NCBI GenBank assembly: GCA_023150835.1
Contig: JAKLKB010000039.1
Coordinates: 1-46,101, forward strand
Direction of reading: 5' to 3'
DNA length: 46,101 bases
From: Myxococcota bacterium
GTDB taxonomy: Bacteria; Myxococcota_C; UBA6777
The stretch's first letter is position 1; each line of letters opens with the position of its first letter. The position numbers and the translations under genes are program-made. Below the pieces are notes generated by a model. The model did not search any database and was not told the origin of the DNA. It worked only from the letters and a program-made list of their open reading frames with translations. Positions 23,825 to 46,011 of this stretch are shown one piece after another.

Positions 23825-23936
23825 CACGAGATCCGCAGGGCGTGTGATCGCAAAGCGTAGGGGCAGACAGGTGTGGCTGCCCAACAATCGGGTGTCTACG
23901 CACTCTCCTACGGGAACACTTCACACGGATATCGTA
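23825..23936. mobile_element. MITE-like family A copy (112 bp) with TCA target-site duplication
   Basis: TCA|cacgagatccg ... cggatatcgta|TCA. Confidence 0.8.
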
Positions 23937-23978
23937 TCACAACCCCCCAAAGACCGCAGATCCATAGGAGCGCAGACT

Positions 23979-26656: not shown

Positions 26657-28207
26657 CTAGATCTTGATCGGCTTGGGCAGTTCGTGATCAAACCGCGCCT
26701 TGATCGCCTTTTTGTCGAGCTTTCCTGCACTTGTCTTTGGAAGAGCCTCCGAAAAGACCACGTAGCGGGGGATCTTGTAGCGTGCAAGATGCGCTTGCGC
26801 GTACCGCAAGATATCTTGCTCGGTGCATCCCGCCCCTTCCTCTCGGCGGATCAGAGCCAGTCCGACCTCTCCCCAACGCGCATCCGCAACCCCCACCACA
26901 GCGGCCTCTGCAACCCCCTCCGCCTCATGCAACACACTTTCGATCTCCGCAGGATACACATTCTCGCCGCCGCTGATGTACATATCCTTGAGGCGCCCCA
27001 CGATGCTCACGTATCCTTCGGCATCCACACGCACCAGATCGCCCGTATGCAGCCAACCTTCGCGCAACACCTCCGCGCTTGCTTCGGGACGCTGCCAATA
27101 CCCCGCCATCACATGCGGACCACGCAAACAAAGCTCACCCACTTCGTCCGCTCCCACGCGGCTTCCGTCTTCATCGATCACTTTGATCTCGACGTGCATC
27201 AACGGAAACCCTACAGCACCCGGCTTTCTCTCGATGTCCTCTTTCGGCAACCAAAAGTTATTCGGTCCCGCTTCTGTTAGCCCATAACCCGTCTTAAAAT
27301 GTACGCCTTTTTCCCAAAATCGCTCAAACACCGGCAACGGACACGGCGCACCCCCACTGATCACAAACTTCGTCCCCGAAAAATCCGCTGCTTTCCAGCG
27401 CGGATCTTCTTGCATCAAAATAAACATCGTCGGAACGCCAAAAAACACCGTCACACCTTGGTCGCGCACCAAGTCAAACACCATCCCGACCTCAAAACCT
27501 TTGCAAACAATCGATGTGCCACCCGCATACACCAACGGCGTCGTAAAGACGTTCAATCCGCCCACATGGAACAACGGGGCATTGAGGATCGCCACATCAT
27601 GCGCATCCAACTCCCAACTGATGATCGTGTTGATCGCGTTCGCAAGGATGTTTCCGTGTGTCAGGGTCGCCCCTTTTGGAAGCCCCGTTGTTCCGCCTGT
27701 ATAGCAGATCAACCACGGATCATCCGGCGCGATCGACACAGGCAACAGAGACTCTCGCTCGTCCATCGCCTCCGAAACCGAAAGCAACGGATCTTGCGAA
27801 CGTATCGCCTTCGTCAATGCGATCCACGTCCCGACCTCAGCCCGACTTCCCTGTAGCGAACGCACCGCATCCCCAAATTCTTCTCCGTAGATCAACGCAA
27901 CAGGCCGACACTCCGCGATAAGCGCATCCAACTCACGCACCTGCAAACGCCAATTCAAATTCTGCAAGATCGCCCCAAGGCGACCACAAGCAAAGAACAC
28001 ATCGAGATACTCGATGCAATTCATCGCCAAGATCGCCACACGATCGCCCTTTCCTACACCCAACGTCTTTTGCAGAGACAACGCCAGCCGTTGCACTTGC
28101 TGATCCCACGCCCGATAAGACACCTGCCGACCTGTTGCTTGATCGATCAAGGCGGTCTTTTCAGGGCTGAGTTGCGCCCTTTTGCGCAGCCAATCCGCAA
28201 CAAACAT
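26657..28207 (-). CDS. Acyl-CoA synthetase (AMP-forming, FadD/MenE-like)
   Basis: YTGGTTGLPKG, PLFHVGGL, GYGLTEAG, GWLHTGD, KDMYISGGENVYPAEIE, LPKTSAGK. Confidence 0.93.
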   Translation of the reverse strand: MFVADWLRKRAQLSPEKTALIDQATGRQVSYRAWDQQVQRLALSLQKTLGVGKGDRVAILAMNCIEYLDVFFACGRLGAILQNLNWRLQVRELDALIAECRPVALIYGEEFGDAVRSLQGSRAEVGTWIALTKAIRSQDPLLSVSEAMDERESLLPVSIAPDDPWLICYTGGTTGLPKGATLTHGNILANAINTIISWELDAHDVAILNAPLFHVGGLNVFTTPLVYAGGTSIVCKGFEVGMVFDLVRDQGVTVFFGVPTMFILMQEDPRWKAADFSGTKFVISGGAPCPLPVFERFWEKGVHFKTGYGLTEAGPNNFWLPKEDIERKPGAVGFPLMHVEIKVIDEDGSRVGADEVGELCLRGPHVMAGYWQRPEASAEVLREGWLHTGDLVRVDAEGYVSIVGRLKDMYISGGENVYPAEIESVLHEAEGVAEAAVVGVADARWGEVGLALIRREEGAGCTEQDILRYAQAHLARYKIPRYVVFSEALPKTSAGKLDKKAIKARFDHELPKPIKI

Positions 28208-28219
28208 CCAAACCTCCGC

Positions 28220-29815
28220 TCAATTTGCAATCTCCGAAACATCCGCACGATCCCCGATCAGATACATCGCAGCGATCACAGCCCATCCCGAAAAAGTCGC
28301 CATCGTCGCCAAAAACGCCGGATTGTTGTGCATAAACGAGATCTTTCCAAACGCCACCGCAAAGTAAGCCACCGTCGAGGCCACCGTACCTATCACGATC
28401 GCACGCCGCGACACCTTCGGAAAAAACATTCCACACGCCAACGGCAAAAACGATACCGTAAAAAGCAAGTACACACCGTACTGACCAAAGATCGCCACCG
28501 ACCGCCCTGTCGGGTTCTTGAGTTGCGCAAAACTTAACCACAACGCCAAGATCCCCAAAAATACCATCCCCACGCGCCCAAACCACATTGCACGCTTCGC
28601 ACGAGCCGCTTCTTCCGCTTCATCTTTCGCTGCTTTGCGCTGCAATCCCAGATACAGATCGTTTGAAAAGATCGTAGACAACGCCAACAAGATCCCTTCG
28701 AGCGTCGATATCCCCGCAGCCAACAACCCCACGCTAATCAACACCTGCGCAGCCGCCGAAAAATTCTGCGCGATATACACGATCACCACCGTGTCGAAGT
28801 TGTGCTGCCCCTTCAACGTCACACGCGCATACAACCCCACCAACATCACCAACATAAACACCACACCCGCCAAAAGCCCCACCAACAAATACGTCCGAAC
28901 ATCTCGCTCTTCTTTGAGATACAACGCTTTGCTCACGATATGCGGCTGGCACACGATCGCACATCCCACCACAAAGTTACATACAAACACCTCAAAAAAG
29001 TTCCGAAAATACAGCGACTTTGGATTGGTGATCTGCGCGAGTTCTGGCTGGATCGCAGCCAACTTCCCAAACAGGCCGCCCTCTTGGAAAAACAGATGTA
29101 CTCCGCTACCGATCATCATCAACGCCACCACCAACATGATAATCGCTTGGATCGTGTTCGTGTACGCGCTGGTGTTCGCACCACCCAACATCACATACGA
29201 AAACACAAAAACCACCGCCCCCACCGCCAAGACCTGCTGATAAAACAGGGCTTGTTCCGCCGCTGTACGGATATTCCAACCATACAACAGCCTAGTGATC
29301 ACACCCAGTTCCTGTCCGCTGTGTGCGGCCTCTTTCATCGACACAAGCGGCGGGATCAACATCACAAACAACACCTTGGCGATGGCAACGACGATCAACA
29401 CCACAAAACTCACCAACGCCAACGACAAGATCGCAAAAAAGATCCGCAACCCCCGCGACTGGTAGCGCGTCCCGATCCACTGCGGAACCGACAACGCCGC
29501 AACCCGCGTCCCCATCGCACGAAAGCGATTCGAGAAAAACACCAGCCCCAAGATAATCCCCAACGACGCAGCGCCTCCCATCCCCAAAAGACCCGATATC
29601 CCGTAAGCATAGATCAACCCGGGATTCACCACAAACGTCGCAACACTCGTCAATTGGGCCGTCAAAGAAAGACCCACAAAGGCAGGGTGGATATCCCGAC
29701 TCCCCACCGCAAAGTTCTTCAGCGAATCGGTCTTCAACAAACCGCGTACCGTCAACCATACCGTCACCGCAACATACAGGCTCAACGCAAGCCAAGCCAT
29801 CTGAAATTTGGTCAT
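28220..29815 (-). CDS. Sodium:solute symporter (SSS family)
   Basis: About 13 hydrophobic helices; SSS-like segments FAVGSR, TSVATFV, WIGTRY, YVMLGG..YTNTIQ, QPHI, LAAGIST; ATG 29815. Confidence 0.88.
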   Translation of the reverse strand: MTKFQMAWLALSLYVAVTVWLTVRGLLKTDSLKNFAVGSRDIHPAFVGLSLTAQLTSVATFVVNPGLIYAYGISGLLGMGGAASLGIILGLVFFSNRFRAMGTRVAALSVPQWIGTRYQSRGLRIFFAILSLALVSFVVLIVVAIAKVLFVMLIPPLVSMKEAAHSGQELGVITRLLYGWNIRTAAEQALFYQQVLAVGAVVFVFSYVMLGGANTSAYTNTIQAIIMLVVALMMIGSGVHLFFQEGGLFGKLAAIQPELAQITNPKSLYFRNFFEVFVCNFVVGCAIVCQPHIVSKALYLKEERDVRTYLLVGLLAGVVFMLVMLVGLYARVTLKGQHNFDTVVIVYIAQNFSAAAQVLISVGLLAAGISTLEGILLALSTIFSNDLYLGLQRKAAKDEAEEAARAKRAMWFGRVGMVFLGILALWLSFAQLKNPTGRSVAIFGQYGVYLLFTVSFLPLACGMFFPKVSRRAIVIGTVASTVAYFAVAFGKISFMHNNPAFLATMATFSGWAVIAAMYLIGDRADVSEIAN

Positions 29816-29839
29816 CGAGACATCTCTTTCGTTGGGGAT

Positions 29840-29990
29840 AGGAGTGCCAAAAAAAAGCCGTGTTCGTGCCGCTTGAAGCGACAGAGTCGTTGGTTTGAAA
29901 AATAGGGATCTCTTCGCCAAACACGGGGTCCATAGAGCCGCGCTCCCTTGTGGAGTGGGGTGAAACCCCACAAAAACCATCAAAACTGCG
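29840..29990 (+). mobile_element. Repeat family B copy
   Basis: aaaagccgtgttc...gttggtttgaaaaa...acacggggtcc...gtggggtgaaaccccac. Confidence 0.7.
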
Positions 29991-30013
29991 TGAGTTCTAT
30001 GGGTTAAGAAAAA

Positions 30014-31528
30014 TTAATAAATCCCAAGGCGTTTTTTGACTTCTGCTTTGATCACTTTTCCCGAAGCATTCAAGGGCAATTCTTGTACAAAATGATAGTG
30101 CTTCGGCATCTTGTAGCGTGCCAACCGCACATCCAAAAAGGCGTGGAGAGCTTCGCTTGTCAAACCTTCTGTGCGCGGCACGATCACCGCAACAGGGACT
30201 TCTCCCCAACGCTCCTCCGATTGCCCGACCACCGACGCCATCGCAACATCAGGGTGACCTGCCAAAAGCTTTTCGATCTCCGCAGGATAGATATTCTCTC
30301 CCCCGCTGATGATCATGTCTTTTTTGCGATCGACGATCGTCAAAAACCCTTCTTCATCAAAACGCCCGATATCGCCCGTGTGCAACCAACCCTTGCGGAT
30401 GGTCTTCGCCGTCTCTTCGGGCAGATTCCAATATCCCTTCATCACATTCGGACCGCGCACGACGATCTCGCCAGACTCTCCCGTCGGAAGGGCGTTTCCA
30501 TCGTCATCCACCACCTTGACCTCTGTGTACAAGATCTGCCGCCCTGCACTACCCGCCTTGCGTAAACACTCGCCCGGACCCATCCCCGTCACTCCCGGGG
30601 CCGCTTCGGTCAGCCCGTACCCTTGGCGAAACTCTAAGCCCCGCGCATGGTACAATTGAATCAACGACTCCGACAACGGCGCACCTCCGCTCAACAGCAC
30701 TTGGCACGAACCAAAGTTCGTCTCCGCAAAACGCGGATGATCCGCCATCAAACGAAAGATCGTTGGGACCCCTACCACTCCCGTCACACGGTCTTTTTCG
30801 ATCGATGCCAACACCGCACCCGCATCAAACTTTTGCTGCAAGATCACCGTCGCCCCAACATGCAACATCGGTGTCACCGAGCCATTCAACCCGCCCACAT
30901 GAAACAGCGGCAACAGCACCAAACACACCGTATCTGGCGAAACGCCCAACGACCAGCCGTTGATCGTCTGCCAAAACACATTGCTATGCGTCAACACCAC
31001 ACCTTTGGGATTCCCCGTCGTGCCGGACGTATAGATGATCATCAAGTCATCATCTCCTCCACCCACAGGATCGCCCAACGGTGACTCTCCTTCGCCTCGC
31101 AAGGCGGCTTCATACGCCGATCCTTCCAAGGTTTCGGCGACTTCCGTCAACACAGGCGCTTGTTCCATCCGCCCCGCCAAGCTGCGCGCTCGTTCTGTCC
31201 AACGCCCCGCATAGATCAAAGAACGAGGCGTACAATCGCGCAAGATATACGCAAGCTCGTCCTCCCCCAAACGCCAATTCAGCGGCACATAAATCGCCCC
31301 GATCTGCGCACAAGCAAACAACACCTCGATCATCTCCGCGCAGTTCGGCAACAACACCGCTACGCGATCTCCTTGCCCCACCCCTTGCCCCTTCAACAAC
31401 GCCGCCAGTTGACTCATCCGATGCGAAAGCGTCGTATAACTCCACGCATGGCGCTCATCTTGAACCGCCAGCTTTTTCCGATACAACGCCGCATTCCGCT
31501 CGATCCATGTCGCAATATTGATCCGCAT
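30014..31528 (-). CDS. Acyl-CoA synthetase (AMP-forming, FadD/MenE-like), second paralogue
   Basis: YTSGTTGNPKG, PLFHVGGL, QGYGLTEA, GWLHTGD, KDMIISGGENIYPAEIE, LPLNASGK. Confidence 0.93.
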   Translation of the reverse strand: MRINIATWIERNAALYRKKLAVQDERHAWSYTTLSHRMSQLAALLKGQGVGQGDRVAVLLPNCAEMIEVLFACAQIGAIYVPLNWRLGEDELAYILRDCTPRSLIYAGRWTERARSLAGRMEQAPVLTEVAETLEGSAYEAALRGEGESPLGDPVGGGDDDLMIIYTSGTTGNPKGVVLTHSNVFWQTINGWSLGVSPDTVCLVLLPLFHVGGLNGSVTPMLHVGATVILQQKFDAGAVLASIEKDRVTGVVGVPTIFRLMADHPRFAETNFGSCQVLLSGGAPLSESLIQLYHARGLEFRQGYGLTEAAPGVTGMGPGECLRKAGSAGRQILYTEVKVVDDDGNALPTGESGEIVVRGPNVMKGYWNLPEETAKTIRKGWLHTGDIGRFDEEGFLTIVDRKKDMIISGGENIYPAEIEKLLAGHPDVAMASVVGQSEERWGEVPVAVIVPRTEGLTSEALHAFLDVRLARYKMPKHYHFVQELPLNASGKVIKAEVKKRLGIY

Positions 31529-31570
31529 CTCTCTCTCCCATCCTCAAAAATCGAAGCCATCCCGAACGAT

Positions 31571-32008
31571 CTACAGCAAAGCCAAAGCATCCGACGTCGC
31601 CTCCTCGCCGATCGAGGCTTCGTCTAAACGTTTTTTGGATGAGGCATCCAGTTGCTCGTGCATCTGCGCCACTTGGGTTTGAAGTTGTTCGATCATCCCG
31701 ATTAACCGAGCGATCTCTTCTGTTCGCCGTTGTTGGCCTGTGCGGAGTTCGTCCATCAGATCCTCCACTTCCGCCAACAAACGCTGTACACCGTGCATCA
31801 CCTTGAGCTGATGGCTGCGCATCGCTACGCCTAGCTGCGAAAGCAACAGATCACGCGTCTGCTCGACCATCCGCAGATTCCGCATCACCCCCCCCAAAAG
31901 CCCTGCGGATGCACGCAAAAAGGTATCGCTTTGTACCACCCGCTCGATCCGTTCGTTGGCCTTCAACGCCAACCGATCAAAACGCGGCTTCCAGTATCGC
32001 TCAAACAT
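31571..32008 (-). CDS. Small coiled-coil protein, PhaE / class IV PHA synthase subunit-like
   Basis: ...LLSQLGVAMRSHQLKVMHGVQRLLAEVEDL resembles the PhaE C-terminal L-x-L-P-T-R + coiled-coil pattern; PHA gene context; AGAGG RBS. Confidence 0.5.
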   Translation of the reverse strand: MFERYWKPRFDRLALKANERIERVVQSDTFLRASAGLLGGVMRNLRMVEQTRDLLLSQLGVAMRSHQLKVMHGVQRLLAEVEDLMDELRTGQQRRTEEIARLIGMIEQLQTQVAQMHEQLDASSKKRLDEASIGEEATSDALALL

Positions 32009-32053
32009 CTTCGTCTTTCCTCTCGTTTGACACTTCCCTCCAAAACGCCGCTG

Positions 32054-32083
32054 AGCATAACCAAGCCCCCATCGCGCTGTCAA
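32054..32083 (-). promoter_or_regulatory. Sigma-70-type promoter for the leftward PhaE-like / ligase / symporter operon
   Basis: TTGACA-N18-TATGCT on the minus strand. Confidence 0.55.
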
Positions 32084-32085
32084 GC

Positions 32086-32280
32086 TATTTTTGTGCATTG
32101 CACAAAAATATGCTGCAAAGCACAAAAATGTACTTGACTTTCACAACGGATTGCTGCATACCCAATCAAGCCAGTCAGACGGGCGGCTTGGCCGCAAACA
32201 ATGCAAGCCCAAAACCGTCCACGATCGCAGAAAAGGCCGCCATCAAAGCGCACAAAACACGCTTTTTTGCAGCGCACAAA
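32086..32280. promoter_or_regulatory. PhaR-type operator boxes (TGC..GCA-rich)
   Basis: Palindrome tatttttgtgca-t-tgcacaaaaata 32086-32110; tgctgcaaagcaca 32111-32124; ttgctgca 32151; ttttgcagcgcacaaa just upstream of phaR. Confidence 0.75.
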
Positions 32281-32290
32281 GGAATCTCCG

Positions 32291-32875
32291 ATGAAGAAAC
32301 AAGGACCGGTAGAGATCCGCAAATACTCGAACCGTCGCTTGTACAACACCCAAGAAAGCTGCTACATCACGCTGCAAGATCTCGCGCAGATGATCCAAGA
32401 CGGCCTTGATGTCCAAGTCCTCGACGCCAAAACAGGCGAAGATCTCACACGCGCCATCATGTTGCAGATCATCTGCGAAAACAAAGCGCAGCAAGAAGCC
32501 CTTCCGATCTCCTTTTTGCGCCAAGTCATCCAAGCAGGCGATAAGGCCGTCCGTTCCTCGATCCGCAGCTACCTCTCGATGGGATGGCAGGCTCAACGCG
32601 AAGTCCAACGCCAGATCGGCCATTGGGCCCGCGCTGCCATGATGATGAATCCGCTGCTCGCTCCCTTTCTGGCCGCACAACGCGATTACAGCTCATCCCC
32701 CAACGCAAACCGCCACGATCTCGCTCCCATCCCCACACCACAACTGCCTCAAATCCTCCCTCCCACCGACGATGACGGCTCGCCTTGGGAACAGATCGAA
32801 CGCTTACGGCTTCAACTTGCCGCCATGCAAGCCCAGATCGACGCCATGACACAAGAACACGACGGTGCGGGATAA
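32291..32875 (+). CDS. phaR: Polyhydroxyalkanoate synthesis repressor PhaR
   Basis: IRKYSNRRLYNT..SCYITL..DAKTGEDLTR..LQII..LPISFLRQVI (PHB_acc_N DNA-binding domain); AAGGA RBS. Confidence 0.93.
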   Translation: MKKQGPVEIRKYSNRRLYNTQESCYITLQDLAQMIQDGLDVQVLDAKTGEDLTRAIMLQIICENKAQQEALPISFLRQVIQAGDKAVRSSIRSYLSMGWQAQREVQRQIGHWARAAMMMNPLLAPFLAAQRDYSSSPNANRHDLAPIPTPQLPQILPPTDDDGSPWEQIERLRLQLAAMQAQIDAMTQEHDGAG

Positions 32876-32965
32876 TCCCCCCATCACCTATCCACCCCAT
32901 CCAAAGAAAGGACGGCGCTTCCTCCCCCCCCTCGTTCATAAGGGGGTCTCCGCGCCGAAAAATCG

Positions 32966-33271
32966 ATGACACAACAGACGGAATCCAAACAAAAAAAACC
33001 TTTGCTTCGCCGCGTTTTTCGCCTTGGTATGGCCCTCAGCGGCATCGACACCATGCGCCAGATCGCCCGTCCCCTCGCTCAGATCGCAGCCAACAACCTC
33101 GAACAAGGATTGCAACTTCAACAAGCCCTCTGGGCGCGCACCGCTGAAGCCCTCCAATCCTCACAAGAAGCCAGTCTCCATCATCTCCGACGCATCGCCG
33201 AGATCAACACTCGCCTCACCGAAACGCTGCGCGACAAGATCAAAGGCATGGCCGATCCCGGTACACACTAG
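32966..33271 (+). CDS. Small amphipathic helical protein, phasin-like
   Basis: 101 aa, Gln/Ala/Leu-rich helices, located between phaR and phaC. Confidence 0.45.
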   Translation: MTQQTESKQKKPLLRRVFRLGMALSGIDTMRQIARPLAQIAANNLEQGLQLQQALWARTAEALQSSQEASLHHLRRIAEINTRLTETLRDKIKGMADPGTH

Positions 33272-33545
33272 GACGAAATCCGTCTATTGTGTCAACACAA
33301 CGTATCGGGGAAGCCCCCTGTAGCTGTCCAATCACAGGGCGTCTCCGCGCTCTCCTTCGATCACACATCACTCGGATTTCGTATTATGCCGCATTTCAAA
33401 AACCCCGTGTTCGCTGCCCCTCAAGCGGTGCCTTCGTTGGTTTGAAAAACCTCTGATCGCTCCGCCAATACGGGGTCAAGGGGGCGGCTCTCCCTTGCGG
33501 GGTGTGGGGCCGCGCCCCACAAAGACAGAACAATAGAGACAAACT
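33272..33545. mobile_element. Composite of repeat family A (33272-33383) and family B (from 33387)
   Basis: gacgaaatccg...cggatttcgta|TTA|tgccgc...ccccgtgttc...gttggtttgaaaa...ggggtcaaggggg...gtggggccgcgccccac. Confidence 0.75.
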
Positions 33546-33592
33546 GAACTCTTTCCAAGATGCCCTATCGACGGACGAAAAAGGAGTCTTGC

Positions 33593-34675
33593 TTGCTCAC
33601 GATCTTCAAAAAAGCGACCCATGCCTTCGGCCAAGCGGCCTCTATCCTTGGCGAAGAAGCCCGCAATCTCGGTCGCCGCACACGCAATAGTGCGCGGCTG
33701 CTTCGCACGCCCTACCCGATGGGCGTGACACCTTATGATGTCGTGTTGCAACGCAACAAAATGAAGCTGCTCGCCTTTCACCGCCTCGGCCCTGAACGCG
33801 AAACCACCCGTCGTCCCGTCCTGATCGTCCCCTCCCTAATCAATCGCTACTACATCCTCGATCTCCAAAAAGGCAAAAGCTTTGTCGAATACCTTTCTCA
33901 ACAAGGCTTTCCTGTCTACGTCATGGATTGGGGCCGTCCCGGTCCAGAAGACGCAGAAGTCGACTTTTCGGAGATCGTCGACTCTTTGATCCACGCTGCT
34001 GTACGCAAAGTTTGTGCGTTGCACCATCAAGAAAGCGTCCACCTGATCGGCCACTGCGTCGGCGGGCTGCTCACGCTTACCTACGCAGCCCTTTATCCCG
34101 AGCGCGTCCGCACCCTACTCAATCTCACCACCCCCGTCGATCTCCGCAAAGGCGGTATCTTGGGGCGTTGGACCTCTGGCGAATGGATGGATCCTGACCT
34201 TGTGGTCGATACCTTTGGCAATGCCCCTTGGCCCCTGCTTCAAGCATCCTTTCAGATGCTTGTCCCCCTCGGTATGTTGATGCGCAACGTCTGGATCTAC
34301 GAACAACTCCCCAACGACAATCTCATCGAAAACATCCGCGCCATGGAAACATGGTCCAATGACAACGTTTCCATCCCGGGCGCTTTTTTTCGCAGCTTTA
34401 TTCGAGATCTTTATCAGAAAAATGCCCTCTACGAAGGAACCTTCTCGCTTAACGGACGCCGAGTGGATCTGCGCAGCTTGCGTCAGCCCGTGATGAACAT
34501 CTCATGCCAAGCCGATCACATCGCCCCCCCCGAAAGCGTTGCAGCCCTCAAAGACCTCCTGCCACACACGCAGGATATCGCGATCCCGGGCGGCCATGTC
34601 TCCGTCGTCGCCAGCTCGCGTGCCGTCAAGACTGTCTGGCCGCAGATCCGCCAGTTCTTTGAAGACGCGGCCTAG
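33593..34675 (+). CDS. phaC: PHA synthase catalytic subunit, class III/IV type
   Basis: GVTPYDVV, PVLIVPSLINRYYILDLQ, YVMDWG, lipase box GHCVGG, ADHIAPP, GGHV; TTG start after AAGGAG (ORF open from 33560). Confidence 0.88.
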   Translation: MLTIFKKATHAFGQAASILGEEARNLGRRTRNSARLLRTPYPMGVTPYDVVLQRNKMKLLAFHRLGPERETTRRPVLIVPSLINRYYILDLQKGKSFVEYLSQQGFPVYVMDWGRPGPEDAEVDFSEIVDSLIHAAVRKVCALHHQESVHLIGHCVGGLLTLTYAALYPERVRTLLNLTTPVDLRKGGILGRWTSGEWMDPDLVVDTFGNAPWPLLQASFQMLVPLGMLMRNVWIYEQLPNDNLIENIRAMETWSNDNVSIPGAFFRSFIRDLYQKNALYEGTFSLNGRRVDLRSLRQPVMNISCQADHIAPPESVAALKDLLPHTQDIAIPGGHVSVVASSRAVKTVWPQIRQFFEDAA

Positions 34676-34757
34676 TCCCTCGAACGCATCGATGCTGTCG
34701 CTTCGGTGCGCCCTTTTGGACCCCAGCGATCATCCCACAGGATGATGGGAGAAACCC

Positions 34758-35897
34758 ATGCTTGAATCACTTGGACTTTTCGGGCTACCCTTCGCATGGT
34801 CACGCGAGATCGCCAAATGGACCCGCACACAGATCCACCGCCACGAAGTCTTTTTGGACAACACCCTGCTCAAAGAACCCGCCAAACCCGCGTGGAGCAG
34901 CCCCAACAAGATCGTGTGGGAACTGCCTAGCCTGCGCCTGCGCGACTTTAGCGAAGATCCCGAAAGCTCGGACATCCCGACTCTTTTGATCAACCCGCAA
35001 GTCAACAGCTCCTACATCTGTGACTACGCCCCGGGACAAAGTCTGATGATGACCCTGCGCGAACAGGGCCTCAAACGCCTGTACGCCGTGGACTGGAAGA
35101 GCGCAACGCTCGAACGTGCCGATGAAACCTTGGATGATGCACTTTGGGCTTTGCACAGCGTGATCGATCATCTCGGTGGCCGCGTGCGTTTGATCGGCTT
35201 GTGCCAAGGCGGATGGATGTCTTTGATGCTCTCTGCCTTATTCCCCCACAAGATCGACAGCGTCGTGTTGGCGGCTGCCCCCATCGACTTTCACGCAGAA
35301 CCCGGCGTGATCAACGTCCTCGCACGTTATGTCTATCCCATGGCTTTCTACGAAGCCCTCGTTGCGATGGGCGGCGGCATCATGCGCGGAGAGATGATCA
35401 GCACAGGTTTCAACAATATGCGACCTTTTGAACGCTACGTCCTCAAATACATCGACCTCTACGCCCACATCGACGATCAAGACTACGTCGCACGCTACCG
35501 CGAACTCGACAACTGGTACGCGTTGGCCCAACATATCCCGGGGGCGACTTACCTGCGGATCGTCAAAGAACTCTTCAAAGAAAATCGCATGGTTTGCGGC
35601 ACGATGATCTGTTGTGATCGCCCGCTCGACTTGAAACATGTCACTTGCCCCGTCCTCATGATCGCCGGTCTGCGCGACCATATCACCTTGCCGGGTCAAC
35701 TCTTTGCAGCCGAACAATACGTCGGCACACAAGAAACTTATCGCTTTACCACAGACGCCGGACATGTGGGCGTCTTTATGAGCAAACGCGCCCTGCGCGA
35801 TGTCTGGCCCAAGGTCGTTGCGGTCCTTCAACAAACCTCTCACGCAACCCAGCCTCCGGCACAGATGATCACCGAACCACCGCGCTTTCAAGCCTAA
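34758..35897 (+). CDS. PhaC/PhaZ-like Cys-nucleophile alpha/beta hydrolase (second synthase or intracellular depolymerase)
   Basis: WSSPN..LRLRDFS, DYAPGQSL, VDWKSAT, GLCQGG, AAPIDFH, RDHIT, AGHVG. Confidence 0.72.
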   Translation: MLESLGLFGLPFAWSREIAKWTRTQIHRHEVFLDNTLLKEPAKPAWSSPNKIVWELPSLRLRDFSEDPESSDIPTLLINPQVNSSYICDYAPGQSLMMTLREQGLKRLYAVDWKSATLERADETLDDALWALHSVIDHLGGRVRLIGLCQGGWMSLMLSALFPHKIDSVVLAAAPIDFHAEPGVINVLARYVYPMAFYEALVAMGGGIMRGEMISTGFNNMRPFERYVLKYIDLYAHIDDQDYVARYRELDNWYALAQHIPGATYLRIVKELFKENRMVCGTMICCDRPLDLKHVTCPVLMIAGLRDHITLPGQLFAAEQYVGTQETYRFTTDAGHVGVFMSKRALRDVWPKVVAVLQQTSHATQPPAQMITEPPRFQA

Positions 35898-35918
35898 ACC
35901 CTAACCGAGAGATCGGCG

Positions 35919-37184
35919 ATGCAATCCAACACCTCCTTCGTCCCTTTTGCTTGGCGTCCCTTTGGGATCATGTCTTGCTTTTGTCTGTTTTCGCTTGGCT
36001 TCTTTTTCTTACAAGGATGTCCCAACGAGACGACAAAAACTTGCTCCCAAGACACCGATTGCCCCTCCGGGCAGATCTGTAAACAAAGCCGTTGCGAAGC
36101 CACCAGCGCAGGATGCAGCACAGACAAGGATTGCCCCGCTGAAAAACAATGCGTCCAGCAGATCTGCAAAGACAAACAACCTGCTTGCCAAAACAACAGC
36201 ACCTGCAAACAAGGCGAAGTCTGCCTCCAAGGTCGCTGTCAACCCCAGCTTTGCACCGATGATCGCAGCTGCCCTGCTGGACAACGCTGTCAAGGCGGAA
36301 GCTGCGTCTCTTCCGAGTCTTCAGAGGAGATCACCCCCAACGAAAAACTTCCCAACGACGGCGGAAGTGAACCCATCCCCGAATCCACTTCCGACACACC
36401 GCCCACCGAAACCACCTCCGAGAACACGCCCGATACGACGCCCGTTTGCGTCCCCAACCGCAACGGCATCATCGAACGCAACGAGCTCACCTTCCGTATC
36501 GGCGCAGCCATCAGCTACACCGCTGCGGGAACCGAAAGCGCCCCTGTGGATGTCGACTTGAAAGGCACCCAAGGCACCGACGGCATCGTGACGTGGGACT
36601 TTAGCAAAAAATTTCCCGACGATAGCCGTGAAATAGATGAAGTCTTGCCCTACAAAGGCCAATGGTTTGAAGGCGATATCCTTGATCCGATCCCCGAATA
36701 TACCTCTATCCTGACACGAAATTATCCTCTTGTCGGTGTCATCCTTGCGGCGTATCGGCCCACTCCTGACGCTCTCCAGATGCTCGGTTGGTACTCCCAA
36801 GAAAAAGATCGCGCCAAGGTCAAATACAACCAACCCGTCGAGATCCTGCAATTCCCGCTCAAACTCGGCGACTCTTGGCTCAACAAACCCACCGCCAAAG
36901 GCTCCTTTCCCAAAAACTTGACCCTCTATAGCGCCAGCGAAGACTACGAATTCAACGTCGACGCCAAAGGCAAAGCCAAACTCCCCGCAGGAACCTACGA
37001 TGTCTTGCGCCTTCGGATGAAGTTTAGCCAAACACAAACCCTACCTGCTTTTGCGAGCCTTTCACGCATCACTTACTTCTTTATCGCAGAGTGTTTTGGC
37101 ATCGTTGCCCGCGTTGATAGCAAGCTCTACGAAAGCGACGAAAACTTTACCAAAGCCAGCCGCCTCAAACGATTGAGCGACTAG
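35919..37184 (+). CDS. Lipoprotein with Cys-rich CxxDxDC repeats, a Pro/Thr/Glu linker and a beta-rich C-terminal domain
   Basis: FFLQG-C lipobox; four Cys modules; C-domain begins CVPNRNGIIERNEL and is paralogous to 40192-41079. Confidence 0.72.
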   Translation: MQSNTSFVPFAWRPFGIMSCFCLFSLGFFFLQGCPNETTKTCSQDTDCPSGQICKQSRCEATSAGCSTDKDCPAEKQCVQQICKDKQPACQNNSTCKQGEVCLQGRCQPQLCTDDRSCPAGQRCQGGSCVSSESSEEITPNEKLPNDGGSEPIPESTSDTPPTETTSENTPDTTPVCVPNRNGIIERNELTFRIGAAISYTAAGTESAPVDVDLKGTQGTDGIVTWDFSKKFPDDSREIDEVLPYKGQWFEGDILDPIPEYTSILTRNYPLVGVILAAYRPTPDALQMLGWYSQEKDRAKVKYNQPVEILQFPLKLGDSWLNKPTAKGSFPKNLTLYSASEDYEFNVDAKGKAKLPAGTYDVLRLRMKFSQTQTLPAFASLSRITYFFIAECFGIVARVDSKLYESDENFTKASRLKRLSD

Positions 37185-37217
37185 CTTTCGATCACACCCT
37201 GAGCCGATCTTGGATGC

Positions 37218-37329
37218 CACGAGATCCACCCGTTGTGTGATCGCAAAACGTCGGGGTAGCAAGATGTGGCTGCCCAACAACAGGGCGTCTACGCACGACC
37301 CGACGATCACACATCTCTCGGATCTTGTA
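37218..37329. mobile_element. MITE-like family A copy (112 bp)
   Basis: cacgagatcc...tgtgtgatcg...gtggctgcccaacaa...cggatcttgta|TTA. Confidence 0.75.
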
Positions 37330-37359
37330 TTACAGGTGTTTTCCGCTGTTGGAGCCGTG

Positions 37360-38334
37360 ATGCCCGTCTTTTTTCGGTATCCTAAGTGTCTCTTGATGCC
37401 GCTCTTTTTCGTTTTACTATGGTGCGGATGTATGCCTTTTCAGACGCAGCCAGTGCGCTCTGGCCTTTCGTCCAAAGACTTTGTACGGATAGGAGATCCG
37501 CAGCGCAAGATCCGAATCTACGAGCGAGGAAAGCCCACCAGCCCAGCGATCGTGTTTGTTCATGGCTACGGATCAGCGGGCCTGATCTGGTTGCCGTTGA
37601 TGAAGACGCTTGAGCAAGCAGGTTATTATTGCCTTGCGATGGATCTTCCCGGCTTCGGCCTTTCTGACAAGTACGCAGGAAACTACGACACAAACTACAT
37701 CGCCGATCAAGTCGCTGAGATCATGCAGAAAAAAGGCATCGATCGCGCCGATATCGTCGCCCATTCTTGGGGAAGTTCGGTCACGCTTGCGTTGGCCTTG
37801 CGTCATCCCAAAAAAGTCCGTCGCATCGTGATCAACGCAGGTTGGGTGTACAGCGCTCAGATCGTTCCTGTCTTGCGTTGGTCAAAGATCCCCGGGATCG
37901 GCGAGATGATCTACTGGCTGTATTACCGCGAGCGACCGGGGGAAAAGTACGCTTCTTCTTTCTATGACCCTGATCGGATGGTCGATATGGCCGTGATCGA
38001 CAAGATCAAAGAAGCCCTCGATCGTCCCGGGGCTTTGGCGGCGGCTCTCGCCGTTGCGCGAGGGATGAAATTTGCCGACAGCGAACGCCGCTACAAGACG
38101 CTGCGCCATCAAACGCTGTTGCTGTGGGGCAAACAAGACCGTGTCGCCTTACCTTTCTACGGACAACGCCTTGAGGCCGACCTCCCGAACGCGCAACTGA
38201 TCTTGCTCGATCGGTGCGGCCACATCCCGATGCTCGAACGCCCTTATCTCGTGCATCGCTATATCCGCAGTTTTCTTGGTCCTGCCGTGGTCTTGGCACA
38301 GCCCGAAGATCCTTCCCCCCCCCAAAAACCCTAG
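37360..38334 (+). CDS. Exported (lipoprotein) alpha/beta-fold hydrolase / esterase
   Basis: Lipobox-like LLWCG-C; FVHGYG, DLPGFGLS, nucleophile elbow AHSWG, WGKQD, CGHIP. Confidence 0.88.
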   Translation: MPVFFRYPKCLLMPLFFVLLWCGCMPFQTQPVRSGLSSKDFVRIGDPQRKIRIYERGKPTSPAIVFVHGYGSAGLIWLPLMKTLEQAGYYCLAMDLPGFGLSDKYAGNYDTNYIADQVAEIMQKKGIDRADIVAHSWGSSVTLALALRHPKKVRRIVINAGWVYSAQIVPVLRWSKIPGIGEMIYWLYYRERPGEKYASSFYDPDRMVDMAVIDKIKEALDRPGALAAALAVARGMKFADSERRYKTLRHQTLLLWGKQDRVALPFYGQRLEADLPNAQLILLDRCGHIPMLERPYLVHRYIRSFLGPAVVLAQPEDPSPPQKP

Positions 38335-38372
38335 AATTGGGCCTGTAAGCATGCTTATTCTTTTAGGAGCCA

Positions 38373-38525
38373 CGCCGTTGACAAAAAATCCCCACGTTCG
38401 CGGCACTTCAAGCGGCAGGGCTGTTGGTTTGAAAAACACCTGTGTACTCCGCCAATACGGGGTCCATCGAGCCGCGCTCTATGGCGGGGCGTGGGGCAAT
38501 GCCCCACAACGCAAACCCCATCTCG
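38373..38525 (+). mobile_element. Repeat family B copy
   Basis: cgccgttgacaaaaa...gttggtttgaaaaa...tacggggtcc...gtggggcaatgccccac. Confidence 0.7.
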
Positions 38526-38539
38526 CCGCTCCTCTGCTT

Positions 38540-40180
38540 TTGCGATCGTTTCTCGTACTTGCGCTTTGGCTTGGGCTGCACGGCCTCACCCATGCCGCAG
38601 GTTCGGATGGTGGGGCGATCTCCGACCCACGCGGCCAAGGCGACCCACCCCATCGCTACGATCCAGCCCTGTCTGCGATGCCGATCCATTTCTCGATCCA
38701 CGGCTATTATCGGATGCGTTGGACCCTGCTTAGCGGCCTCGATCTAGGTCGTGGCCCCACACCTTCGAGCGGCACAACGATCTTTCCCAAACCCACCGAT
38801 GGCAGCCTGATCAACACCGCCGATATGCGCTTTCGCACCGATCTTTCTCTTGAGATCGGAAGTACCGTCCGCGTCTTTGCCCGTGTAGACGGCCTCGACA
38901 ACGTCGTGCTTGGTTCTACGCCTGAAGGTCTCCCCCGCAACAACCGTGTCCCACAGATCGTCGCAACCACAGGCCAACGCGCCCCTTCTGCCGGCCAAAA
39001 CAACGCCCTCGACAGCATCAACTTGCGCTGGGCCTACGGTGAAGTCCTGTTGCCGTTTGGTTATCTTGCCGTCGGTCGGATGGGTGCGCTCACCCCTTGG
39101 GGGTTGGGCCTGCTCGTCAACCCCGGAAATGCGATCGATGACGATCAAGGCGATGTCGCCGACCGCATCGCGATGGGCTTTGCGCTTTTCGGACACCTCT
39201 TGCTTGTTGCGTACGAGTGGAGCGCAAGCGGACCCACCCTGACCATCCCAAGCAATGCTTCGGTCGATCAAGATCCACGCGATAACGTCCAATCCATCGG
39301 CATCGCGATCGCAAACTACGATCCACCCGATGCCCTCCGCCGCAAACTCAACGCAGGGCAAACCGTGATCAACTACGGCGTAATCTTTTCCTACCGCTGG
39401 CAAGATCGCGATATCCCCGCACTCTACGCCCCAGACGGCTGGTCCGAAGACCAACGCATCCAACGTGGCGACCAAGTCTTGCGAAAAGCATGGAGTGTCG
39501 TGGTCGACGCTTGGTTTTTGCTGCGCACACCTTGGTTTCGCCTTGAGATGGAGGGCCTTTACGCCCAAGCCGAGATCGGCAATGGCTCCCTTGTACCGGG
39601 TGTTGCGCTGACTCTGCCCATCACCTCGCAACAACTCGGCGGCGTAGTCCAGTTCGCCTTCTCTCCGCCCCAAAGCATCTGGGGGATCGGTGCAGAGATC
39701 GGCTATGCTTCGGGCGACAACGCTCCCGGCTTTGGCGTGACAGCCCCCCTCAACCAGATCCGCACCCAACGCGGCGATCTCGACGGCCCGCAGATCAATT
39801 ATCCCAACGATACCACCTCCAACAACCTACGCTTTCACCCCAACTACCGCATCGATCTGATCTTTTGGCGGCGCATCCTTGGCCAAGTGACGGACGCCTT
39901 CTACACCAAGCTTGGCGGTCATCTCGATATCACACCGCGCTTGCGCTTTTGGGCCTCTGTCCTTTACTCCCGCGCCATCGAAGCCAACAGCACACCCGGC
40001 GGCGTTCATGATCTTGGAGTCGAGATCAACACCGGCCTACGCTACGATTACGATCACGGCTTCCAGATCCGCACCACCTTTGGCGCTTTCTTCCCACTCG
40101 CTGGGCTGCGCAACAACGAACTCAACCTCGCTCCTCAGCCTGCCCTCGCCCTCCATACAGTCCTTGCCTACGTCTTTTAG
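38540..40180 (+). CDS. TIGR04551-like myxobacterial outer-membrane beta-barrel protein
   Basis: Signal peptide; HGYYRMR, LDNVVLGSTPEG, WGLG..NPG..DDD, EIGYASGD, RFHPNYRIDLIFWR; C-terminal YVF; start uncertain (ORF open from 38276). Confidence 0.75.
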   Translation: MRSFLVLALWLGLHGLTHAAGSDGGAISDPRGQGDPPHRYDPALSAMPIHFSIHGYYRMRWTLLSGLDLGRGPTPSSGTTIFPKPTDGSLINTADMRFRTDLSLEIGSTVRVFARVDGLDNVVLGSTPEGLPRNNRVPQIVATTGQRAPSAGQNNALDSINLRWAYGEVLLPFGYLAVGRMGALTPWGLGLLVNPGNAIDDDQGDVADRIAMGFALFGHLLLVAYEWSASGPTLTIPSNASVDQDPRDNVQSIGIAIANYDPPDALRRKLNAGQTVINYGVIFSYRWQDRDIPALYAPDGWSEDQRIQRGDQVLRKAWSVVVDAWFLLRTPWFRLEMEGLYAQAEIGNGSLVPGVALTLPITSQQLGGVVQFAFSPPQSIWGIGAEIGYASGDNAPGFGVTAPLNQIRTQRGDLDGPQINYPNDTTSNNLRFHPNYRIDLIFWRRILGQVTDAFYTKLGGHLDITPRLRFWASVLYSRAIEANSTPGGVHDLGVEINTGLRYDYDHGFQIRTTFGAFFPLAGLRNNELNLAPQPALALHTVLAYVF

Positions 40181-40191
40181 GATACATCCGC

Positions 40192-41079
40192 ATGAAACCA
40201 ACACTCTCGCTGTTTGTTTTTCTTCTGCTTGCCTGCTTGATCCTCCCGATATTCGGGTGTCCTGATCCGACTCCCCAAAAAGAGCAGACGACGCAACAAG
40301 ACGGCGCTCCCACCGAAGAGATCACCACCCTCCCCGATGATCCACCCGAACGATGTGTCGGAAACAACGACGGGATCATCGAACTCAAAGAAGTGGCCTT
40401 TGTGGTCGGCGCAAGCGTCAACGTCTTGCGCAACAAAGCCGGAACCACCGTCCAAGTCAATCAACAAGGCAACCGAGACAACGAAGGCAACCTTGTTTGG
40501 GACTTCCGCAAACTGCCGCTCGATCAAAAAGATGCCGTCCGCACCGTCGATCCCACAGGAAAGTGGTTTTTGTCCGACTTTCCCGATGCCACGCTCTTGA
40601 TCCCCATCGTCTACCAAGGCTTTTCAGGCATCTCTTATCAAGTCTTACGAAAGACTCCGACGGATCTTCTGCTCGATGGCATCGTCTCCGATCTCGAACA
40701 ACCCGAGCAAGAAAAGATCTCGCTCAAATACGAAACGCCCGTCCCCCTCCTGCGTTTCCCTTTGCGCGATGGCAAGGAGTGGATCGTCGTCTCCAAAGCC
40801 AAAGGCAGCGTCGCAGGACAACCTCTCACCTCCACAGACACCTACCAGATCCGCGTCGCAGGCCGAGGAATCCTCAAGATCCCTGACATCGAGTTCCAAA
40901 ATGCCCTCCGCATCGAGATATCTGTTCAACAGCGTTTGCTCGGTGGCAACAGCCGTACAATTTACCAGATCCTCTATATGGCCGAATGCTACGGCGAGAT
41001 CGCACGCATCGAATCCGTCGAAAATGAAAAAGATCCCGCCTTTACCCAAGCCTCTCTTGCTCGCTTCCTCACCTTCTAA
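40192..41079 (+). CDS. Lipoprotein, paralogue of the C-terminal domain of 35919-37184
   Basis: PIFG-C lipobox; CVGNNDGIIELKE, WDF, LRFPL..G..W, AECYG.IAR..S...FTQAS shared with 35919. Confidence 0.72.
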   Translation: MKPTLSLFVFLLLACLILPIFGCPDPTPQKEQTTQQDGAPTEEITTLPDDPPERCVGNNDGIIELKEVAFVVGASVNVLRNKAGTTVQVNQQGNRDNEGNLVWDFRKLPLDQKDAVRTVDPTGKWFLSDFPDATLLIPIVYQGFSGISYQVLRKTPTDLLLDGIVSDLEQPEQEKISLKYETPVPLLRFPLRDGKEWIVVSKAKGSVAGQPLTSTDTYQIRVAGRGILKIPDIEFQNALRIEISVQQRLLGGNSRTIYQILYMAECYGEIARIESVENEKDPAFTQASLARFLTF

Positions 41080-41254
41080 CTCCCTCGCAACTGGCTTGTC
41101 AGAGACGGATTTAACCTAACGCCTATGGGGGCAGCCCCTACGTTTTGCGATCCACCCCCTGCGGATCTCGTATCACCACTCTGCCGCCGAGACAGGCGCG
41201 GATGCTGTTTTTTTTGCCCGCTGCATCCTCCTGATCGATGCGAATTTCTCTCGC

Positions 41255-41283
41255 TTGCGCTTTTGCCAAAGATATCCTACGCT
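41255..41283 (+). promoter_or_regulatory. Sigma-70-like promoter, duplicated at 42932-42960
   Basis: TTGCGC-N17-TACGCT conserved in both copies of the tandem duplication. Confidence 0.5.
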
Positions 41284-41343
41284 GTGGGGACTTTGCCGTT
41301 GTTTTTGGCTGCCCTCGTTTCCCTGCACCGCGTAAGAGAATGT

Positions 41344-41535
41344 ATGCGAACTACCCTTTGGATCTTGCTTGGCTGCTTTGCGCTCTCGCCAACAGCCCAC
41401 GCACAACCCATCTCGGACTGCGCTCAACGATGCGCAAAAGACTGTTTCCAAAAAGCCGATTCGACCGACCCCTGCGCGACCTTGCGCTGCTCGGTATTCT
41501 GCAAAAAAACTTCCCGACGACAAACACTTCGATGA
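41344..41535 (+). pseudogene. Truncated copy of the CX3C-rich secreted protein
   Basis: 63 codons homologous to 43028 onward, then a deletion equivalent to 43219-43520 creates TGA. Confidence 0.8.
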
Positions 41536-41550
41536 ACCAAGAGGACGGCC

Positions 41551-42897: not shown

Positions 42898-43027
42898 CTC
42901 CCCTCGACTGTTTGGCCCGAATTTCTCTCGCTTGCGCTCTTGCCAAAGATATCCTACGCTGTTCGAGCTTTGCCTCTCTTTCTTTGCCTGCTGCCCTCGT
43001 TTCTGACCCAACTACACAGGAGGACGT

Positions 43028-43522
43028 ATGCGAATTGCCCTTTGGATCTTGCTTGGCTGCCTTGCGCTTTTGCCAACAGCCCACGCACAGCCCGCCTCGG
43101 ACTGCCCAACACGATGCACAAAAGACTGTATCGAAAAAGCCGATGCTACCGACCCCTACGCGACCTTGCGTTGCTCGGTACTCTGCAAAAAAACTTGCCG
43201 GCGACAAACACTTCGATGCCACCGCCAATGTGAGATGCAACACATCCGCGATCTGCGCTCTTGCAACACACAACCCCCCGCGCAACAGGCCGCTTGCCGC
43301 TTGCTCGCTACACAACAACAACAACGCTGCAAACAAACCTGCCCACCACTTCCGCCCAAACCTGCTGTCTCCCCCCTCTGCATCGCTCTTTGCAAAGAAA
43401 CACAACAACGCTCCACCCAAACCTGCATCACGATCAACGATCCCACGCAGCGAAAAGCCTGCCGTATCCGCAGCAAACAAGCCTTTCAACATTGCTTACG
43501 CCATTGTCATACCACCCATTAA
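43028..43522 (+). CDS. Secreted small Cys-rich protein with repeated CX3C helical-hairpin motifs
   Basis: Signal peptide ending AHA; CPTRCTKDC, CSVLCKKTC, CHRQC, CKQTC, CIALC, CLRHC; AGGAGG RBS. Confidence 0.75.
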   Translation: MRIALWILLGCLALLPTAHAQPASDCPTRCTKDCIEKADATDPYATLRCSVLCKKTCRRQTLRCHRQCEMQHIRDLRSCNTQPPAQQAACRLLATQQQQRCKQTCPPLPPKPAVSPLCIALCKETQQRSTQTCITINDPTQRKACRIRSKQAFQHCLRHCHTTH

Positions 43523-43536
43523 CCAAGAGGACGGCC

Positions 43537-45899: not shown

Positions 45900-46011
45900 C
45901 ACGATATCCGCAAGATGTGTGATCGAAGGATCGTGCGTAGACACCCGACTGTTGGGCAGCCACACCTGTCTGCCCCTACGTTTTGCGATCACACGGTGGG
46001 CGGATCTCGTA
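45900..46011. mobile_element. MITE-like family A copy (112 bp)
   Basis: TTA|cacgatatccg...gggcagccacacctgtctgcccctac...cggatctcgta. Confidence 0.78.

Follow-up and report, generated by a model that had tools for sequence, protein, structure and literature searches.

The stretch of DNA analysed here, called the window, is a whole contig of 46,101 nucleotides (C194; GenBank JAKLKB010000039.1) from an uncultured Myxococcota bacterium, whose genome assembly (G000) has 7.56 Mb in 239 contigs, with 93% completeness and 55% G+C. Positions 26657-41079 carry a polyhydroxyalkanoate (PHA) locus of 12 genes, which form two divergent operons flanking TGC-N3-GCA palindromes of PhaR type. The left operon, on the minus strand, encodes in order a short PhaE-like protein, an adenylate-forming ligase (lig1), a transporter of the sodium:solute symporter (SSS) family and a second ligase (lig2). 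The right operon, on the plus strand, encodes PhaR, a helical protein of 101 residues, PhaC1, PhaC2, the lipoprotein lipo421, a Ser hydrolase, an outer-membrane barrel of family TIGR04551 and the lipoprotein lipo295. A first-pass annotation, made from the DNA letters alone, had described divergent operons around PhaR boxes with these 12 genes, and each of them is found in its place. Family assignments are based on profile bit scores compared with curated cut-offs, and equivalog models are used for PhaA, PhaB and 3-hydroxybutyrate dehydrogenase (Bdh). G001, G003, G004 and G005 are genomes of the same lineage as G000, and loci outside this lineage have L numbers.

PHA genes and predicted PhaR operators

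PhaR (32291-32875, plus strand; 32291 is its most likely start) matches PHB_acc_N (PF07879) with 94.4 bits, over a cut-off of 25, and the equivalog model TIGR01848 with 97.7 bits, under its cut-off of 109.45. The predicted operators are PhaR-type boxes found upstream of phaR and between the operons, in the region 32091-32279, with TTGTGCATTGCACAA at 32091, TGCAAAGCA at 32114 and TGCAGCGCA at 32268. Their cores, at 32094, 32114 and 32268, have the form TGC-N3-GCA, which we take to be that of the known PhaR site, and three of them fall inside a spacer of 280 bp where about 0.09 are expected from the 2379 such sites in 7.56 Mb. The first box is a perfect TTGTGCA-T-TGCACAA and is abutted by a promoter-like TTGACA-18-TATGCT on the minus strand, from a promoter scan that overall is not above chance (promoters 4 vs 6.8 and terminators 18 vs 17.1 in shuffled sequence). 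The palindromes are kept in three genera, with an identical type of box preceding TTGAC in G004 and G003, which represent the two other genera, and a single box lies between the strands in L172 and L173.

Searches for further operators in the genome gave candidates that were set aside. An extended operator, TTGTGC-N3-GCACAA, is matched at 10 or more of its 12 positions by 74 sites, three of them perfect, and the perfect sites away from the locus, within an open reading frame (ORF) on contig C29 and between two Ser/Thr kinase genes on C111, are judged to be chance. A scan for clusters of at least three boxes per 150 bp returned 13 intervals, about half of which are runs of one repeated 9-mer, and was dropped because it missed the locus itself.

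PhaC1 (33560-34675, plus strand) is a class III-like PHA synthase, which scores 281.1 bits on TIGR01836, below the cut-off of 365.3. Its GHCVGG, DH and GGH motifs, which provide the Cys-Asp-His triad, align to those of solved synthases and are invariant among orthologs. The first gene of the left operon (31571-32008, minus strand) encodes a coiled-coil protein of 145 residues, whose earlier label of PhaE-like holds through its profile relatives and fails for the protein itself, which has nothing relevant in Pfam even at E <= 10. A profile of five orthologs recovers 983 proteins, mostly of 95-110 residues; PF09712 is present in 49 of the 120 that were listed, and one of these 120 bears the name PhaE. 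The genome has no match to PF09712 and no full-length PhaE at E <= 0.1. A language-model search points, as a lead only, to Bacillota clusters of the class IV synthase subunit named 'PhaR' (score 0.92), and homologs of the protein are present between the ligase and phaR in L172 and L173. The predicted complex of PhaC1 with the PhaE-like protein scores 0.33, compared with 0.00 for the best control, and weakly supports a pairing; the runs share at least 92% of contacts and the partner has a predicted local distance difference test score (pLDDT) of at least 75. Among 157 solved complexes 116 reach this mark, as do 2 of 215 mismatches; at 0.60 or under, only 18 of the 157 reach it.

The helical protein of 101 residues (32966-33271, plus strand) is phasin-like by position alone. 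It has no family match, even in Pfam at E <= 10, and the best score of a language-model search is 0.86, a lead only, with PHA-related clusters at just 0.79-0.83. A small helical ORF occupies the same position in G004, G003, L172 and L173.

These genes make the locus similar to class III and class IV PHA synthase loci in its PhaC of about 370 residues, where a Cys-Asp-His triad is combined with a G-X-C-X-G-G box, in its small coiled-coil protein related to PF09712 proteins, in its PhaR with TGC-N3-GCA boxes and in the short helical protein encoded next to PhaR. The locus differs from class III loci in the PhaC1 score, which stays under the class III cut-off, and in the length of the coiled-coil protein, since class III PhaE has about 40 kDa. 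It also differs from both classes in the addition of ligases, a symporter and an envelope cassette.

PhaC2 (34758-35897, plus strand) is a Cys-type PhaC/PhaZ-like alpha/beta hydrolase, which matches PHB_depo_C with 46.7 bits (cut-off 27) and DUF3141 with 69.6 bits (cut-off 29.7) and conserves GLCQGG, Asp307 and His336. Two features link it to the PhaZa1 family (TIGR01849/PF06850): its PHB_depo_C score exceeds the Pfam cut-off, and its nucleophile elbow carries a Cys. In contrast to this family, it reaches 65.8 bits on the PhaZ model TIGR01849, which has a cut-off of 300.75, and scores higher, at 175.2 bits, on the class III synthase model (cut-off 365.3). A search for its relatives found 524 loci, of which 80 were kept. 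The relatives, with 40-47% identity, are stand-alone genes in Burkholderia, Alphaproteobacteria and other Proteobacteria, and are annotated merely as 'alpha/beta fold hydrolase' or 'PHB de-polymerase domain protein'. The kept loci outside the lineage (77; L069-L145) are stand-alone Cys-type PHB_depo_C hydrolases of about 360 residues from Proteobacteria, and none of them has the symporter, phaR or the envelope genes in a comparison that discarded high-scoring segment pairs (HSPs) shorter than half of the query. L105 has a ligase match of 29-30% identity at 8.7 kb from the PhaC2 relative, and L089 and L111 have a second PhaC-like match kilobases away. Among the neighbour clusters, each typed by one scanned representative, phosphate acetyl/butyryl-transferase occurs at 19 of the 77 loci and acetate kinase at 8. 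These phosphotransacylase and kinase neighbours hint at an acyl-CoA product, so PhaC2 may depolymerise by thiolysis.

Ligases, symporter and envelope cassette

The two ligases are adenylate-forming acyl-CoA ligases. The 504-residue lig1 (30014-31528, minus strand) matches AMP-binding with 322.6 bits and the long-chain-fatty-acid-CoA ligase subfamily PRK06187 with 507.6 bits, above the cut-off of 476, and its best solved relatives are 8weu/8wev (418 bits), FadD13 and FadD5. The 516-residue lig2 (26657-28207, minus strand) matches AMP-binding with 295.8 bits, AMP-binding_C with 66.4 bits and PRK06187 with 466.4 bits, just under the cut-off, and has an ortholog with 61% identity in G004. Both are of generic FadD type, so their substrate cannot be inferred from sequence.

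The transporter between the ligases (28220-29815, minus strand; its likely ATG is at 29815) matches PF00474 with 96.4 bits (cut-off 22.8) and TIGR00813 with 97 bits, below the cut-off of 184. Its matches to the PanF, PutP and MctC equivalogs are weak and none reaches the cut-off, nor is there an ActP match above cut-off. Orthologs in G003 and G004 have 55-58% identity. Symporters of the SSS family transport small soluble solutes, and long-chain acids enter through FadL-type channels. In acs-actP pairs an SSS permease is combined with a CoA synthetase for small soluble carboxylates, and the left operon is similar in having an SSS transporter and AMP-forming CoA ligases in one operon; it is different in that it has no ActP or MctC equivalog, two ligases of FadD13 type in place of Acs, and a coupling to a PHA synthase. 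The pair of SSS transporter and lig2 recurs at 38-39% identity (39% for the ligase itself) on a plasmid of Chondrinema litorale (L208), and it therefore seems to be a mobile module that takes up and activates an acid whose final form is a CoA thioester. The plasmid region (NZ_CP111049.1, 194431-204619) encodes FabG, KAS III, the SSS transporter, the AMP-binding ligase, an alpha/beta hydrolase, a hypothetical protein and a TonB-dependent receptor.

The last four genes of the right operon form an envelope cassette of three lipoproteins and one barrel, because the hydrolase also carries a lipobox. Lipo421 (35919-37184, plus strand), which has the lipobox FLQGC, contains Cys-rich repeats (DUF7107 36 bits, Myxo_Cys_RPT 30.2 bits) and a C-terminal YmcC-like barrel domain. 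This C-terminal domain is common to lipo421 and lipo295, with 30% identity between them, and in G000 is found at this locus only. Lipo295 (40192-41079, plus strand; 295 residues, lipobox IFGC) has a beta-barrel model with pLDDT 83.6, which structure comparison places nearest 4fvs_A (Z 8.9, root-mean-square deviation 4.8, 178 residues aligned) and YmcC 2in5_B (Z 7.5); a Z of 8.9 barely exceeds the usual background of 7-8. Foldseek finds nothing for lipo295 at E <= 0.001, and Pfam at E <= 10 gives nothing relevant for lipo295 or for the barrel. The lipo295 family is rare, with 23 proteins at E <= 1e-5 in a set of 5.8 billion, in a search limited by a word filter.

The Ser alpha/beta hydrolase (abh374 ORF; 37360-38334, plus strand) has an HSWGS motif and matches Abhydrolase_1 with 110.7 bits. 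The first-pass annotation took it for an exported Ser hydrolase, which is correct and can be refined to a lipoprotein, since a lipobox is seen in the G000 protein and, among five orthologs inspected, in those of G004, L172, L168 and L174; the fifth, from L173, is a fragment that begins inside the signal. Its best solved relative by sequence is 6i8w, the phospholipase A1 PlaF, with 81.7 bits over residues 33-148 of 311, followed by meta-cleavage and epoxide hydrolases, and the Bacillus-type poly(3-hydroxybutyrate) (PHB) depolymerase ranks far lower. The barrel (omp634 ORF; 38540-40180, plus strand, with a likely TTG start at 38540) matches TIGR04551 with 355 bits (cut-off 300). Its model is a beta-barrel with pLDDT 65, and the top Foldseek match is AlgE (4azl; E 1.7e-13, TM 0.48/0.58, identity 9-10%), an exporter with an 18-strand barrel, closely followed by MOMP and the OccK/OprD porins (TM 0.46/0.60 for OprD/OccK). 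The sole paralog of the barrel in G000 adjoins genes for Hsp20, HtrA and DapAB.

Conservation, RNA libraries and surrounding sequence

Synteny with G004 extends from lig2 to lipo295, at 50-64% identity, and is also kept in G003 and G001 up to the ends of their contigs; in G005 the cassette is at a contig start. The block has identical limits in three genera of the lineage, in which phaC, phaR and a CoA ligase accompany the envelope genes, and the flanking genes are not conserved in the relatives, so that 26657-41079 represents the true limits of the block. Between phaC1 and lipo295, neighbouring genes of G004 either overlap or leave gaps of 28 bp at most. Outside the lineage, a metagenome scan seeded by the lipoprotein alignment, in which HSPs covering less than 35% of the query were discarded, yielded 14 loci; contigs with 69-74% G+C carry the four-gene cassette again, at 33-43% identity. 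In L172 and L173 it is downstream of PhaR and the small helical protein, in L173 also with a PhaC ahead of it, and the opposite strand encodes a PhaE-like protein, a ligase and a PhaC1-like gene, in an order and on strands different from those of the window. The ligase of L172 and L173 is of another subtype (AMP-binding_C_3, best match FadD11), and the opposite-strand operon of L172 ends in a lipoprotein with 121.8 bits on the model of extracellular type-1 short-chain-length (scl) PHA depolymerases (cut-off 150). The first-pass annotation would count a lack of co-conservation with phaC against its reading; the envelope genes do travel with phaC in the three genera and, in rearranged form, in this second, high-GC lineage. 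Because the linkage persists in spite of the rearrangement, function rather than mere descent is argued.

Contigs assembled from four metatranscriptome runs, all from one sample of one study, bridge phaR and the 101-residue protein (32186-33363), the stretch from phaC1 through the hydrolase (33492-38319) and the barrel with lipo295 (38523-41086), and break at the repeats 33273-33522 and 38365-38510. They cover the left operon thinly; depth is not used to rank genes and proves nothing.

The repeats at these breaks belong to two families, A and B, whose dispersed intergenic copies have about 110-140 nt. Each family has 435-562 blastn hits on about 170 of the 239 contigs, and the repeats contain GC-rich hairpins such as GTGGGGC-AAT-GCCCCAC. 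Inside the block, a B copy (29845-29973; 465 hits, 173 contigs) lies in the spacer of lig1 and the symporter, A (33273-33386) and B (33398-33522) copies lie between the small protein and phaC1, an A copy (37219-37335; 562 hits, 177 contigs) lies between lipo421 and the hydrolase, and a B copy (38365-38510; 435 hits, 169 contigs) lies between the hydrolase and the barrel. Further A copies in the window are at 45906-46010, 23825-23941, 234-350 and 15366-15441, and a further B copy is at 13788-13891. Such repeats, and not coding sequence, make up the long N-terminal parts of the ORFs for the symporter, the hydrolase and the barrel, and the same junctions have 26-28 bp in G004 (26 bp for that of lipo421 and the hydrolase). 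The starts are corrected to the likely positions 29815, 37360 and 38540.

A gene of 577 residues to the left of lig2 (24895-26628) is excluded from the block because its orthologs in G004 and G005 are in the middle of contigs without ligase or pha genes. To the right, 41125-42897 and 42919-45006 are a tandemly duplicated gene pair, which encodes a small Cys-rich exported protein and a protein of about 450 residues. The copies are 76-78% identical, have a third copy on C87 and no family match, and are conserved within the same genus and not in G004.

The GTDB phylum of G000 has only six species genomes, of 5-11 Mb and from one family. The families Myxo_Cys_RPT and TIGR04551, which are specific to myxobacteria, nonetheless occur in G000.

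Monomer supply and possible salvage of foreign acids

PHA synthesis is taught as supplied by PhaA and PhaB or by PhaJ and PhaG. The absence of thiolase, reductase (TIGR01829) and MaoC genes, which the first-pass annotation reported for the locus, extends to the whole 46-kb contig. Its wording 'without phaA/phaB' applies to the locus and not to the genome, where thiolases, FabG-type reductases and MaoC hydratases occur elsewhere. Equivalogs are missing from this 93%-complete genome at the curated cut-offs: none of the 25 TIGR01829 (PhaB) matches passes 302.1 bits, the best score on the PhaA model NF042967 is 388.9 bits against a cut-off of 740, and no Bdh equivalog is over its cut-off. On contig C21 (5668-6795) the genome encodes an exported lipoprotein that has an acidic linker and, as its catalytic part, an extracellular type-1 scl-PHA depolymerase domain (NF050058, 172.7 bits, cut-off 150); G004 has two tandem copies on its contig C121. 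This depolymerase model is passed by five of the six genomes of the phylum and by none of 14 control genomes.

The reading proposed here, to which we give about even odds (roughly 0.5), is a PhaR-controlled route that salvages short (hydroxy)acids, or esters of them, from outside the cell for storage as PHA. Gene identities, families, synteny, operator boxes and presence in RNA libraries are observed; the transport direction, the substrates and each enzymatic step are what we infer. Short (R)-3-hydroxy acids, free or ester-linked, would cross the outer membrane through the AlgE/OprD-like barrel, and their favoured source would be oligomers cut from foreign PHA by the exported PHB-depolymerase-type lipoprotein. 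The two YmcC-like lipoproteins would handle the oligomers and the lipoprotein Ser hydrolase would cleave them. The sodium:solute symporter would import the free acids, one or both ligases would join them to CoA, and PhaC1 with the short PhaE-like subunit would polymerise them as a class III-like synthase. PhaC2, as a Cys-type hydrolase with a PHB depolymerase domain, would most likely remobilise the polymer, and the PhaR boxes between the operons would couple expression to the state of the granules. This salvage is favoured because a ligase is conserved beside PhaC in two lineages, because the symporter family carries small soluble solutes, because the channel is a porin-type barrel and not of FadL type, and because exported PHB-depolymerase-type lipoproteins are present. 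In a narrower version, a natural recycling of monomers, the polyester of other organisms, whether prey or PHA-rich sludge cells that have died, would be cut to oligomers outside the cell; these would pass a dedicated outer-membrane channel and be trimmed by a lipoprotein esterase, and the resulting (R)-3-hydroxy acids would be imported, ligated to CoA and built into PHA again, bypassing acetyl-CoA. We consider this version possible but less likely than not.

The scavenging pathway suggested in the first-pass annotation thus gains from the co-conservation, the gene spacing in G004, the RNA-library contigs, the C21 depolymerase and the lack of PhaA, PhaB and Bdh equivalogs, and it loses from several observations that weigh against it. 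G000 has eight thiolase matches over the cut-off of the generic model TIGR01930, several FabG-type reductases (the best with 237.4 bits on TIGR01829) and five MaoC matches, one of which has the PhaJ-like size of 158 residues, so that a de novo or beta-oxidation supply is possible; unlinked phaAB genes are also normal in some PHA producers. A two-domain 3-oxoacyl reductase of PRK08261 type (506 bits, cut-off 410) is directly followed by a thiolase on C207 (302-3318). The first 2100 nt of this pair, the one candidate inspected for boxes, have no TGC-N3-GCA, nor do PhaR-type boxes lie upstream of it, and a co-regulated phaAB elsewhere in the genome is possible. The ligases are nearest to fatty-acyl and feruloyl-CoA synthetases, FadD13 and FadD5. 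The hydrolase has no Esterase_PHB (PF10503) match at E <= 0.01, scores 69.1 bits on the Bacillus-type depolymerase model NF050089 (cut-off 300) and is no nearer to PHA depolymerases than to many other hydrolases, with a phospholipase A1 as its best solved relative. The barrel has an exporter, AlgE, as its top fold match. A symporter is missing from L172 and L173, the cassette of L167 and L168 follows a LysR or cyclophilin gene with no pha gene in 8-10.7 kb, and that of L174 has an SDR gene upstream and two FadL genes downstream, at 4 kb. The RNA-library contigs may include DNA, as there is no silent-stretch control, and do not prove a single transcript.

Part of this evidence would fit a harvest of lipids, in which the hydrolase is a lipase or phospholipase that releases fatty acids from foreign or own membrane lipids, the ligases activate them as FadD-type enzymes, and beta-oxidation with unlinked hydratases of MaoC/PhaJ type supplies (R)-3-hydroxyacyl-CoA to PhaC1. 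The PRK06187 score of lig1, the FadD11 match of the L172 ligase, the relationship of the hydrolase to the membrane phospholipase PlaF, the FadL genes of L174 and the MaoC and thiolase genes of G000 all agree with it, as does the resemblance of the lipoprotein barrels to LolA-type and lipid-binding sheets (Z 4-6). Partial text of a study of predatory Bradymonabacteria (PMC7460792) describes PHA that accumulates during predation and a synthesis from beta-oxidation that its authors inferred, which is the same route. We consider it a live but rather unlikely rival here, given that no beta-oxidation or PhaJ gene is in the locus in any lineage examined, that the barrel is of AlgE/OprD type and the symporter of a family that carries small soluble solutes, and that the PlaF match spans only part of the hydrolase.

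Another explanation, which we also doubt, is that the neighbours are not one pathway: the cassette would have another task in the envelope, the ligases and symporter would serve carboxylates in general, and monomers would come from unlinked genes. The cassettes without nearby pha genes in L167 and L168, the position of the barrel paralog beside genes for Hsp20, HtrA and DapAB, the SSS-ligase pair without PhaC in Chondrinema and the candidate supply genes elsewhere in G000 are in line with separate roles. They are opposed by a linkage that outlasts rearrangement between two lineages at 33-43% identity, by the overlapping or closely spaced genes of G004, by a PhaR-box region common to both operons, by RNA-library contigs that bridge phaC2, lipo421 and the hydrolase, and by the confinement of the lipoprotein domain to this locus in G000. 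A reversed direction, in which a polyester, an oligomer or some acylated product would leave the cell by way of the AlgE-like barrel and the YmcC-like lipoproteins, trimmed by the hydrolase, is highly improbable. The alginate exporter AlgE is the best fold match of the barrel, and in E. coli YmcC is part of an operon for capsule export; against these stand the nearly equal match to the OprD/OccK uptake porins, the cytoplasmic nature of PhaC and phasin-type proteins, as known for their families, and the lack of an inner-membrane exporter in the locus, where the SSS symporter is the only inner-membrane protein.

The salvage reading has a counterpart in extracellular PHA degradation, with which it shares an exported PHB-depolymerase-type lipoprotein (C21, L172) and an exported Ser hydrolase in the locus. 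In extracellular degradation, by an exported PhaZ and an oligomer hydrolase, the monomers are burned, whereas this regulated locus combines a synthase with a hydrolase, an importer and ligases; the locus hydrolase is also outside the known depolymerase families. Bdellovibrio is said to use the PHA of its prey. Literature searches found no publication on TIGR04551 and none on 3-hydroxybutyryl-CoA synthetase together with PHB. Passages of a study of sludge Myxococcota (10.1101/2024.04.26.591422) report that most of them carry PHA genes and go no further. Its supplementary tables may list the genes described here, and outside these tables, which were not seen, no published description of the locus was found.

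DNA of the window is found in activated-sludge and wastewater runs of eight studies, one of which is possibly its source. Activated sludge is rich in PHA-laden cells, which also speaks for salvage. If the narrower version given above is correct, a cell would inherit the carbon store of another cell nearly intact, and (R)-3-hydroxy acids of lipid A would enter in the same way. Dedicated, regulated uptake and ligation would be a third natural supply line for PHA, and a function would be assigned to TIGR04551 barrels, YmcC-like lipoproteins, short PhaE-like proteins and Cys hydrolases of PhaC2 type. The ligase-synthase pair is possibly useful for producing PHA from hydroxy acids. The route would also have a bearing on the carbon flow of activated sludge, where PHA cycling drives phosphorus removal.

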